DNA from: a virus
Taxonomy: Duplodnaviria; Heunggongvirae; Uroviricota; Caudoviricetes
Reading direction: 5' to 3' (one strand)
IMG/VR virus record: IMGVR_UViG_2728369393_000007
Length of the DNA stretch: 64,000 nucleotides
Made by a program: the position numbers and the translations under genes. This document shows positions 43,609 to 44,621 of the stretch, piece after piece; the first letter of the stretch is position 1, and each line of letters opens with the position of its first letter. The notes below the pieces were generated by a model. The model worked only from the letters and a program-made list of their open reading frames with translations. It was not told the origin of the DNA and searched no databases.

Positions 43609-44436
43609 TTATTTAATCTGGATAAATGGTGTATTGGCACCACTGGTCATGTATTGCGGCAGTGTACCGTTCCACTTGTTGATGGCTTCCAGCTCCATGA
43701 CGCCAGGGTTCTGGCGCAGAGCTTCGCCGCGTAAACGAATGGCATCGGCTTCTGCCAGGGCTTTTGTTCGAATGGCATCAGCCTGTCCGGCAGCTTCTGC
43801 ACGCAGCATGTTGGCCTCCGCTTCACGTTGCTTGACTTCCTGTTCGCGCTGCAGGGTTTTCTGGTTTGCCGTGACTTTGGCGTTAATGCTGTCGATAACG
43901 GTTGGCGGGTATTCCGGTTTACCTACATAAGAGAGGCTCATTACCTGAACGCCGATGGGGGTCATCTCTTCCTGAATGTCTTTAAGTGCGGCATCCAGTA
44001 GTTCAGACTTGCCGCCGTCGATAAATTTGTCGGTGGTCATTTTGCTGGCCAGTCGATTGAGTGCGTCGGCGATCTTCTGGCGCAGGTCAGTGGCGGTAAT
44101 GTCATCCACGCCTTTGCGGTAGGTCTGAAACACCGTGGTAACTTTGGATGGATCAACTTTGTAGGCAACACCGATGTGATAGCCGATGGTTGTGCCGTCA
44201 CTCATCTGGAAGCTGAACGGCTCATCGTAGGTCTTCATTTGTTTGAAGGTTGGGAAGATGTAAACTTCAGTATTCCAGCCAGTCCAGTAGCGACCAACAC
44301 CGACCACCTCACCGACGCCTTTATCGTCGCCCAGTTTATTTACTTTGATGCCAACATTACCGGGTTCAACGCGATCGCAGCCGACAAGGCCAATGGTCGG
44401 CAGAACAATGGCTAAAGCAAAAATAATTTTTTTCAT
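43609..44436 (-). CDS. SPFH/band-7 (prohibitin/HflC-like) domain lipoprotein
   Basis: Lipobox MKKIIFALAIVLPTIGLVGC; C-terminal Ala/Glu-rich coiled coil typical of SPFH proteins. Confidence 0.65.
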   Translation of the reverse strand: MKKIIFALAIVLPTIGLVGCDRVEPGNVGIKVNKLGDDKGVGEVVGVGRYWTGWNTEVYIFPTFKQMKTYDEPFSFQMSDGTTIGYHIGVAYKVDPSKVTTVFQTYRKGVDDITATDLRQKIADALNRLASKMTTDKFIDGGKSELLDAALKDIQEEMTPIGVQVMSLSYVGKPEYPPTVIDSINAKVTANQKTLQREQEVKQREAEANMLRAEAAGQADAIRTKALAEADAIRLRGEALRQNPGVMELEAINKWNGTLPQYMTSGANTPFIQIK

Positions 44437-44621
44437 TTTTTATCCTTAGTGAAAGAAAGACCCTTGTAAATGGCATAAATGCAGGGCGGGGTCAGAAACG
44501 CCAGTGCAAAGCCAGAAGTAACTGCTATCGTATCCTTCATGGATATAAGGAACGGAACGAGTAATCCGTAAATGCATGCGATAATTGCCAGTAAAATTAC
44601 TATTGTGAAATACAGTCTCAT
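44433..44621 (-). CDS. small membrane protein, translationally coupled to SPFH gene
   Basis: 62 aa, two hydrophobic helices; ATGA overlap with downstream SPFH start. Confidence 0.5.
   Translation of the reverse strand: MRLYFTIVILLAIIACIYGLLVPFLISMKDTIAVTSGFALAFLTPPCIYAIYKGLSFTKDKK

Follow-up and report, generated by a model that had tools for sequence, protein, structure and literature searches.

SPFH proteins are ancient membrane scaffolds whose bacterial roles are debated and whose known operon partner is NfeD. Here, we describe a two-gene module that joins a protein of this superfamily to a very small membrane protein, located at positions 43,609–44,621 of a 64,000-nucleotide stretch of tailed-phage DNA (Caudoviricetes; IMG/VR record IMGVR_UViG_2728369393_000007), the whole of which is referred to as the window. 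HflK and HflC, which are encoded by two adjacent paralogous genes and carry an N-terminal transmembrane (TM) helix, and the prohibitins, which form a mitochondrial ring with m-AAA protease clients, are eukaryotic, hetero-oligomeric and TM-anchored and lack a small partner gene, cage FtsH-family proteases (PMC12048511). In the SPFH–NfeD operons (QmcA–YbbJ, YqiK–YqiJ and PH1511–PH1510) a small membrane protein gene is coupled to the SPFH gene, and fusions of the two are found (PMC2636767); in the solved QmcA–YbbJ complex (8z5g) the partner is bound to the cage. The purpose of the SPFH gene in phages has been called unclear (PMC8540360; PMC13239085), and the searchable literature on phage SPFH function contains speculation and no functional assignment. 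PM0222 (Pmorf0222), an HflK/C-like SPFH protein of 25–35 kDa from a Pasteurella multocida prophage, is, when compared by description only, possibly a member of the same phage SPFH family, from which it is set apart by its reported role as a vesicle-associated virulence factor acting on the Toll-like receptors TLR1/2 (PMC9872710). In the searchable literature, we found no description of the two-helix pairing, the fusions, the inner-membrane lipoprotein anchoring or the consistent early-operon placement described below.

The module is formed by a 62-residue open reading frame (ORF; 44621..44433) and a 275-residue ORF (44436..43609), both on the minus strand, which have the four bases 44433–44436 (ATGA) in common:

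44433–44621, minus strand: small partner gene (ORF; phrog_1130; RefSeq hypothetical protein WP_001242071.1)
43609–44436, minus strand: SPFH/Band-7 lipoprotein gene, 275 residues (phrog_200; RefSeq WP_000720006.1, 'SPFH domain-containing protein')
44433–44436, minus strand: ATGA stop/start overlap representing translational coupling (sequence; recurrence in homologous junctions)

The pair phrog_1130 + phrog_200 is one conserved, mobile phage accessory module, the genes of which are translationally coupled and in some lineages fused, and it clearly belongs to the SPFH superfamily, outside both HflK/C and the NfeD–SPFH operons. A preliminary description of this DNA had proposed a phage-borne SPFH lipoprotein with an HflC/prohibitin-like coiled coil, overlapping by ATGA and coupled to a tiny two-helix membrane protein in the accessory cargo near the integrase gene, and had recognized no named system; each of these points is borne out by the sequence and by the results that follow. 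The 1,013-bp interval 43609–44621 is 100% identical in Escherichia coli O157:H7 strain PV15-279, in which RefSeq annotates both genes. The surrounding region is 99.5–99.9% identical to phiP27-like Shiga toxin 2 (Stx2)-converting phages and 93% identical to phiP27. In phiP27 the large gene bears the name L05 ('putative serine protease/lipoprotein'), and no annotation is given for the small one.

The features of the large protein are:

44374–44436, minus strand: signal peptide (residues 1–19) and lipobox LVGC with Cys20, followed by Asp21 at position +2 (sequence)
43813–44373, minus strand: SPFH (Band_7) domain, residues 22–208, predicted to be periplasmic (Pfam; AlphaFold2; Foldseek)
43711–43905, minus strand: long helix, residues 178–242, the coiled-coil wall segment of cage-forming SPFH proteins (AlphaFold2; PDB profile matches)
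43657–43677, minus strand: C-terminal motif K-W-N-G-T-L-P, residues 254–260 (family alignment)

Its N-terminus, MKKIIFALAIVLPTIGLVGC-DRVEPG, includes a classical lipobox with Cys20; the parts MKK-IIFALAIVLPTIG-LVGC correspond to a basic n-region, a hydrophobic h-region and a lipobox agreeing with the consensus [LVI][ASTVI][GAS]C. An aspartate at +2 is a Lol-avoidance signal, by which enterobacterial lipoproteins are retained in the inner membrane. Of 120 enterobacterial protein clusters, at least 96 retain Cys-Asp. The lipobox is present in 111 of the 142 full-length family representatives, and in a family alignment of 60 sequences at least 90% have its cysteine; a minority of relatives bear an uncleaved N-terminal anchor. 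The Pfam profile PF01145 (Band_7/SPFH) matches residues 22–208 over its whole length (E = 1.2e-30; 107.3 bits against a cut-off of 23.6 bits), and the PHROGs assignment is phrog_200, 'lipoprotein' (E = 1e-112). The AlphaFold2 model, a monomer built from 40 close homologues with a mean predicted local distance difference test score (pLDDT) of 72.6, contains the SPFH fold: a signal helix is followed by the SPFH alpha/beta domain (20–175), one 65-residue helix (178–242) and a poorly defined C-terminus. When the model was compared with the PDB using Foldseek, 67 matches were obtained at E ≤ 1e-3, with full-length matches to HflC, HflK, prohibitins 1 and 2, erlin, stomatin and flotillin:

HflC (7vhq_G): E = 4.9e-14
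Prohibitin-2 (8rrh_B): E = 5.5e-14
HflK (7vhq_E): E = 5.5e-14
Erlin and stomatin: E = 7.0e-13 to 1.1e-12 (best)
Flotillin: E = 2.9e-9 (best)
QmcA of the QmcA–YbbJ complex (8z5g_A): E = 6e-8

A profile search of PDB sequences gave HflK, prohibitin-2 (6iqe_A and 8rrh_B) and HflC as the sole matches, with the coiled-coil regions of HflK and prohibitin-2 aligned. The large protein is a full-length SPFH protomer of the HflK/C–prohibitin type. In its C-terminal motif the tryptophan and glycine are invariant and the proline nearly so among 60 representatives of 29–46% identity; the segment has low pLDDT in the monomer model, and the W-x-G-x-x-P motif may help to close the oligomer.

The resemblance to HflK/HflC covers the SPFH domain, the long coiled-coil helix, the C-terminal segment and the predicted periplasmic sidedness at the inner membrane, and these proteins are the best fold, NCBIfam and PDB sequence matches of the large protein. 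The differences are nevertheless considerable: the identity is ~17%, the NCBIfam equivalog profiles score 15–23 bits against cut-offs of 134–660 bits, the phage module has one SPFH gene in place of two paralogues and a lipobox anchor in place of the N-terminal TM helix, and it is a phage-borne accessory with a dedicated two-TM partner. Prohibitin-1/2 resembles the phage protein in fold and length (8rrh_B, 5.5e-14), has an alignable coiled coil and faces a periplasm-equivalent compartment, but differs from it in the respects given above for the eukaryotic family.

The 62-residue partner, MRLYFTIVILLAIIACIYGLLVPFLISMKDTIAVTSGFALAFLTPPCIYAIYKGLSFTKDKK, consists of two hydrophobic helices connected by the short loop P-F-L-I-S-M-K-D-T and ends in the basic tail KGLSFTKDKK. 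Its PHROGs assignment is phrog_1130, 'membrane protein' (E = 7e-23), in the category 'moron, auxiliary metabolic gene and host takeover', and the same family takes in 10 of 12 diverse partners. An alignment of 12 partners, which are 14–71% identical, has three invariant residues only, P23, S27 and G37, two of which delimit a conserved motif:

44541–44555, minus strand: codons P23-F-L-I-S27, the conserved P-x-[LM]-[IV]-S motif at the periplasmic end of helix 1 (partner alignment)

The small protein belongs to no Pfam, NCBIfam or PADLOC family and has no match in the PDB, and the 12 diverse partners gave neither NfeD nor any other significant family when compared with Pfam at E ≤ 1. A chance small ORF is ruled out by the invariant residues and by the upstream partner matches across loci. 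We infer that the protein is a hairpin of the inner membrane with both termini in the cytoplasm (N-in/C-in), since this topology is indicated by the positive-inside rule (R2; K53, K58, K60 and K61), by the natural fusions described below and by an independent depositor annotation, '2 TMDs N in C in', for the homologue gp28 of the N4-like phage KpCHEMY26.

The association of the two genes was surveyed with a partner profile hidden Markov model (HMM) run on six-frame translations of 194 related loci. The two genes occur together far more often than chance would allow. In 181 of the 194 loci a same-strand partner match is found no more than 400 nt upstream of the SPFH gene, and in eight further loci it lies 440–1,000 nt upstream, with an insertion sequence (IS) element or one to three inserted genes between. 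Clustering of the SPFH proteins at 70% identity gives 33 clusters, of which 26 include an adjacent partner and three a more distant one; of the four that have none, one is a locus cut off at the start of the SPFH gene. Among 85 distinct junction sequences, 53 have the 4-nt ATGA overlap, set between unrelated flanking bases. In each of the 194 loci but one, an SPFH HMM detects one SPFH segment only; the exception is L014, where the frame is cut by an early stop. The partner is gp11 (67 residues, 4-nt overlap) in the P2-like phage P88, a 64-residue protein with a 4-nt overlap in the lambdoid phage Fraca and an unannotated 78-residue ORF in P1-like phage-plasmids. A two-helix ORF also precedes the SPFH gene in Salmonella, Pantoea, Kluyvera, Yersinia, Lelliottia, Chimaeribacter, Sutterella, Luteibacter and Dyella genomes, in which the identity to the SPFH protein of the window falls to 45%, and the partner is upstream in Nevskia, in Xanthomonadales and Pseudomonas prophages and in N4-like and rV5-like lytic phages.

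The two parts are also found as one polypeptide. A HMMER search of 1.84 billion representative proteins returned 2,766 relatives, 206 of them at E ≤ 1e-30. Of the 142 representatives taken at 50% identity, at least 13 (~18 by eye) are fused, in-frame precursors in which an N-terminal extension of 60–100 residues, equivalent to the two-helix partner with its P-x-L-I-S motif, is followed by a signal-like segment, the lipobox cysteine and the SPFH domain. For one fusion, P0159, the uninterrupted ORF was confirmed in the contig DNA, where it adjoins a PDDEXK exonuclease gene within a phage-like series of small genes, all in one direction. Its AlphaFold2 model (pLDDT 81.9) has helices at 3–21, 30–52 and 59–72 and then an SPFH domain with pLDDT > 90; separate small proteins were left out of the underlying alignment, and the hairpin part thus has little alignment support (pLDDT about 50–65). 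As Rosetta-stone evidence, natural fusions of this kind indicate joint action of the two proteins. Their layout also requires an N-in/C-in hairpin and a periplasmic SPFH domain, because the third hydrophobic segment must export the latter. The lipobox is retained in every fusion, so that cleavage by signal peptidase II would yield the same two products again.

Genes are inserted between partner and SPFH gene at some loci on viral contigs and in one phage. The insert is a 308-residue protein with an apparent signal peptide on a 518-kb contig (L165, 2045–2971), three small, apparently soluble proteins in L118 (2115–2978) and a 54-residue soluble protein in phage 4MG (L109, 2332–2496). The products of these genes may be additional components or clients.

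The parallel with the NfeD–SPFH operons, drawn in the preliminary description, does not stand as a family assignment. The adjacent, directly upstream and coupled small membrane protein gene and the occurrence of fusions are common to both; the likeness does not extend to the partner, in which no NfeD or OB-fold signal and no significant Pfam family is detected, or to the SPFH protein, which is predicted to be exported and lipid-anchored on the periplasmic side, not cytoplasmic.

The module is widely but patchily distributed in phages. A DNA match is present in 536 of 5426 complete E. coli genomes (~10%), at 419 chromosomal and 199 plasmid places (prophages and P1-like plasmids), and tblastn of 50,697 phage records detects the SPFH protein in 389, many of them from obligately lytic phages. 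Every context examined is phage DNA. All eight Enterobacter-type partner contexts are lambdoid prophages with the pair between an S24 repressor and xis/int, and the 'chromosomal' copies of Nevskia and Pseudomonas putida are located inside prophages, with a 4-nt overlap to the partner; a housekeeping operon is ruled out by the prophage location of these two examined copies. In the N4-like Schitoviridae phage KpCHEMY26, gp28 and gp29 share the ATGA overlap, and the rV5-like Vequintavirinae carry the pair, with one extra small gene between its members in 4MG. The SPFH gene is further present in Bruynoghevirus TL, Felix-O1-like phiEa104, phiCbK, jumbo phages and Prevotella Lak phages, and in a crAss-like phage it is preceded by an unannotated two-helix ORF.

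In temperate and lytic phages alike the gene neighbourhood points to early expression. The pair of the window belongs to a leftward block that starts with a CI-like repressor and ends with excisionase and integrase, 0.6–0.9 kb downstream of the pair:

46811–47530, minus strand: CI-like repressor (helix-turn-helix and S24 peptidase type), upstream of the pair at the head of the leftward block (ORF; annotation of near-identical phages)
41434–43007, minus strand: integrase (41434–42720) and excisionase region, the prophage end, downstream of the module (ORFs; near-identical phage annotations)

The repressor is named 'phage repressor protein CI' or 'XRE family' in near-identical phages. In lambdoid and phiP27-like prophages generally, the pair comes among the final genes of the leftward operon, ahead of xis/int, and as a rule it abuts or overlaps its upstream neighbour, so that there is no space for a promoter of its own. 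The 184-nt gap upstream of the module in the window contains no minus-strand sigma-70-like promoter in a consensus scan, and the promoter-like sites near the module are only inside the small ORF or on the opposite strand. The P88 pair is within the cox-to-A early operon. In the P1-like plasmid MH422554 a perfect 17/17 match to the P1 C1 operator consensus, overlapped by a second match of 15/17, is found upstream of the pair (L003, 5054–5081); 0.01 matches are expected by chance. This pair is on the same strand as tRNA-Asn, tRNA-Thr, tRNA-Met and a DnaB-type helicase (L003 features 4245–4398 and 2365–2440), downstream of the C1 operator, and it therefore sits in the ban-type operon of a P1 variant, at the position of the tciABC genes in classical P1. 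In lytic phages, the pair or the SPFH gene lies among genes for dUTPase, DNA polymerase, ligase, exonuclease and helicase. On the simplest reading of the repressor-controlled early operons of temperate phages, the early or DNA-metabolism neighbours in lytic phages and the consensus scans, the module would be expressed early after infection or induction and not in the stable lysogen. The lytic carriers and the repressor-controlled early position in temperate phages argue against a lysogeny-specific or lysogen-protecting role.

The two components differ in their histories. The mature part of the SPFH protein is ~91% identical to the P88 and P1-like copies (L002 and L003), the DNA identity to these copies (86–92%) is restricted to ~43643–44388 of the window, and the mosaic breakpoint lies just inside the SPFH gene. 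As judged from these alignments, the putative scaffold is conserved and exchanged between phage types and the predicted membrane-embedded part is swapped or fast-diverging; the hairpin may be the specificity-bearing or conflict-exposed component. In Shigella flexneri SFBU1023 and E. coli ECMA0423 (L005 and L006, ~5234–6000) ~770 bp of extra DNA, probably an insertion sequence, lies exactly between the two genes, alters the partner C-terminus and uncouples the pair, and a Symbiopectobacterium SPFH copy is truncated by an early stop. The module is dispensable, as indicated by its presence in 10% of E. coli genomes, the IS-split loci and the Symbiopectobacterium truncation.

We propose the following course of events. 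Both proteins would be made together and early, with the hairpin inserting into the inner membrane and the SPFH protomer being exported and lipidated; Asp at +2 would keep it on the outer leaflet of the inner membrane. The protomers would oligomerize into a ring or dome on the periplasmic face, as do all SPFH proteins of solved assembly and in line with the conserved coiled coil and the C-terminal W-x-G-x-x-P motif. The dome would enclose a membrane patch holding the hairpin, the conserved loop of which would meet the SPFH domain at the membrane surface, and the module would remodel or wall off part of the host inner membrane to the benefit of the developing phage. The evidence leans slightly towards the structural and organizational core of this proposal, namely an early-made, periplasm-facing SPFH ring with a hairpin partner, the choice of client being left aside. 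That the module controls access to a host inner-membrane machine, with FtsH-type quality control as the prime candidate, is our leading, though tentative, proposal for its role, by analogy: the same-sided SPFH domes with known clients, those of HflK/C and prohibitin, cage FtsH-family proteases. FtsH is targeted by phages, an example being lambda CIII. A role in the preservation of membrane integrity or in lysis timing ranks not far below, though it is rather unlikely.

Several observations weigh against this proposal. The tie to FtsH is one of family resemblance alone, with HflK/C identity at ~17% and NCBIfam scores far below the cut-offs; at such identity the alignment register is unreliable for the residue-level contact between HflK Arg191 and FtsH (PMC12048511). 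Anchoring differs as well, being by a lipid in the phage protein and by a transmembrane helix in HflK/C. The models are of monomers only, of moderate AlphaFold2 confidence (pLDDT 72.6) and with the C-terminal 30 residues below 50. The signal peptide and partner (44389–44621) represent a different allele from that of the P88 and P1-like copies, to whose partners the small protein is 20–29% identical; as the partner diverges or is exchanged much faster than the scaffold, few specific contacts between the two may be possible. No partner is detectable in Felix-O1-like phiEa104, a different three-TM protein is upstream in phiCbK and extra genes separate partner and SPFH gene in some lineages. Finally, the 184-nt upstream gap of the window could hide a non-consensus promoter.

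Among the alternatives to an early periplasmic ring acting on a host machine, superinfection exclusion fares best and is possible, though on balance we doubt it. An early periplasmic SPFH layer with its hairpin would block DNA translocation or tail-tip insertion by a secondary phage; it would resemble T4 Imm/Sp or P22 SieA in function, with a different fold. The predicted location of the proteins in the periplasm and inner membrane and of their genes among the early genes, the patchy occurrence of an accessory module that moves between unrelated phage types (86–92% DNA identity among phiP27-like, P2-like and P1-like copies), its usefulness to lytic and temperate phages alike, the fast divergence of a membrane partner beside a conserved scaffold and the 'host takeover' category of the partner are all consistent with exclusion. 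The known exclusion proteins (T4 Imm/Sp, T5 Llp, phi80/HK022 Cor and P22 SieA) would be comparable as early or accessory envelope proteins, some of them lipoproteins; they have no sequence or fold relation to the module, and Llp and Cor are in the outer membrane, as opposed to the inner membrane predicted here. They are, moreover, small and lineage-specific, whereas the SPFH family spans crAss-like, Prevotella Lak and proteobacterial phages, a breadth of conservation that suggests a conserved host target or pure self-assembly. Since the temperate copies appear to be under repressor control, the module would give no protection to the lysogen itself. No experimental report of exclusion was found in the literature. 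Neither protein, nor any of three genes nearby, has a match in PADLOC-DB 2.0 at E ≤ 0.1, and a known anti-phage defence system is thus ruled out at the level of the models.

A mimic or antagonist of HflK/C that tunes FtsH degradation of a CII-like regulator and sets the lysis–lysogeny decision, as suggested in the preliminary description, is improbable. Speculation of the same type has been published for Pseudomonas phages (PMC8540360; PMC4936722), one of these reports also noting the SPFH gene in strictly lytic phages (PMC8540360). The best sequence and fold matches to HflK, HflC and prohibitin and the HflK/C-like predicted periplasmic orientation speak in its favour. The leftward early operon position also corresponds to the cIII site on the lambda map. 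The idea is weakened by the obligately lytic carriers (N4-like, rV5-like, Felix-O1-like, phiCbK, Bruynoghevirus and crAss-like phages), by the presence of the pair in P2-like and P1-like phages, the switches of which operate without CII/FtsH, and by the one SPFH gene per locus, with no K/C pair and equivalog scores of 15–23 against 134–660 bits. A generic action on FtsH, or exclusion during infection, is possible.

We consider it quite improbable that the small protein is a holin-like or ion-channel effector gated by the SPFH cage and serving, as a switch that depolarizes the membrane, abortive infection, lysis timing or host shut-off. It shares two TM helices, the N-in/C-in topology and a basic C-terminal tail with class II holins, and stomatin-type SPFH proteins regulate channels, the aquaporin–stomatin structure 9zd2 being among the fold matches. 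Its best holin match, Holin_SPP1, is nonetheless weak and non-significant (E = 0.17; 12.5 bits against a 27-bit cut-off), the three invariant residues are of helix-packing type, and the gene is in an early position and never beside an endolysin, the holin and endolysin of near-identical phages being ~16 kb away. Very unlikely is a lysogenic-conversion surface or virulence lipoprotein of the PM0222 kind, which would reach the outer membrane or vesicles and act on the animal host. TLR2 activation is generic to bacterial lipoproteins, Asp at +2 predicts inner-membrane retention, the genes are in repressor-controlled early operons and lytic phages that infect environmental and plant bacteria have homologues; all of this counts against such a role, for which one can cite the O157:H7-type genome, the type III secretion effector cargo next door and the report that prophage-encoded PM0222 is present in outer-membrane vesicles and activates TLR1/2 and that virulence is attenuated by its deletion (PMC9872710). 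A phage-carried NfeD–SPFH operon of the QmcA–YbbJ or YqiJK kind is hardly credible, because the coupled gene order, the fusions and the fold match to QmcA (8z5g_A, 6e-8) are outweighed by a partner without an NfeD domain or PDB match and too short for an OB-fold, by a lipoprotein signal directing to the periplasm a protein whose counterparts QmcA and YqiK face the cytoplasm, and by the better Foldseek scores of HflC, HflK and prohibitin.

The arrangement reported here, a lipid-anchored, predicted periplasm-facing SPFH protomer with a minimal two-helix partner, separate or fused, is distinct. As a two-gene module it offers a small and tractable system for asking what an SPFH cage does to a membrane, and it would show which process of the host inner membrane is controlled by phages early in infection. 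Its carriers include Stx-converting phages; should the module act on FtsH, on DNA entry or on membrane integrity, it would be relevant to the biology of Stx phages and phage-plasmids and to the choice of therapeutic phages. The presence of an SPFH gene has also been misread as a marker of a temperate lifestyle. In its broadest and still speculative form, to which we would give tentative credence at most, the proposal is of a pan-phage 'periplasmic nanocage', installed early and hijacking or shielding a conserved membrane machine (by FtsH sequestration or by closure of DNA entry). If true, this would constitute an unrecognized class of host-takeover or exclusion device, common to lytic and temperate phages of many families and ranging from Proteobacteria to Bacteroidota, and would for the first time give an SPFH assembly a defined function in viruses.

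The naming of the family in databases is heterogeneous. The large-gene family appears as PHROG 200, 'SPFH domain-containing protein' and 'lipoprotein', and some relatives as 'prohibitin family protein' (NCBI); phage records additionally carry 'serine protease', 'transposase', 'transposase fusion protein', 'peptidyl-tRNA hydrolase' and 'mobile element protein'. These last five labels look like propagated mis-annotations of the SPFH lipoprotein, 'serine protease' and 'transposase' being frequent ones.

Two hairpins border the module in the window:

44766–44790, minus strand: AT-rich hairpin and U-run closely following the upstream gene's stop codon, on the 5' border of the module (fold −4.9 kcal/mol, z = −2.7)
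43585–43601, minus strand: GC-rich hairpin with no U-run, directly 3' of the SPFH stop and abutting the DUF5406 start (fold −10.8 kcal/mol, z = −2.4)

The former is followed by CGUUUUUU and is a weak terminator-like element that was missed by the consensus scan. The classic promoter–gene–terminator layout of a 'moron' is unsupported, as no promoter for the module was found on the coding strand in the 184-nt gap, the upstream hairpin is weak and the downstream hairpin lacks a U-run. The best promoter-like site in the upstream gap (44649–44677, plus strand; CTGACA-17-AATAAT, 10/12) is directed away from the module and runs antisense to the 190-residue gene upstream. Downstream of the module lie a DUF5406 gene of unknown function (43199–43582, minus strand; phrog_3409) and an ORF overlapping it (43051–43290, minus strand), which RefSeq treats as a DUF4222 remnant. 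Beside the CI-like repressor, a 245-residue protein (45961–46698, minus strand) with apparently two helix-turn-helix-like repeats is called 'transcriptional regulator' or 'helix-turn-helix domain-containing protein' in near-identical records; it may be a second regulator of the immunity region.

In the right-hand prophage, ARAGORN found no tRNAs at the place where the Stx2-converting relatives have tRNAs and stx2AB. The left-hand prophage has three tRNA genes (Met-CAT, Lys-TTT and Arg-TCT) at 7180–7420, the stx-upstream tRNA position of lambdoid Stx phages, and no toxin-sized plus-strand ORF follows them before a 616-residue ORF at 8504–10354. Immediately to the left of the phiP27-like integrase, ~34600–41400 is the cargo end of the neighbouring lambdoid prophage. 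As mapped by identity to O157:H7 PV15-279, this cargo comprises the type III effector genes nleA, a truncated nleH1-2, nleG (36977–37624) and espM1 (37808–38398), together with IS630 and IS3 remnants and a degraded integrase.

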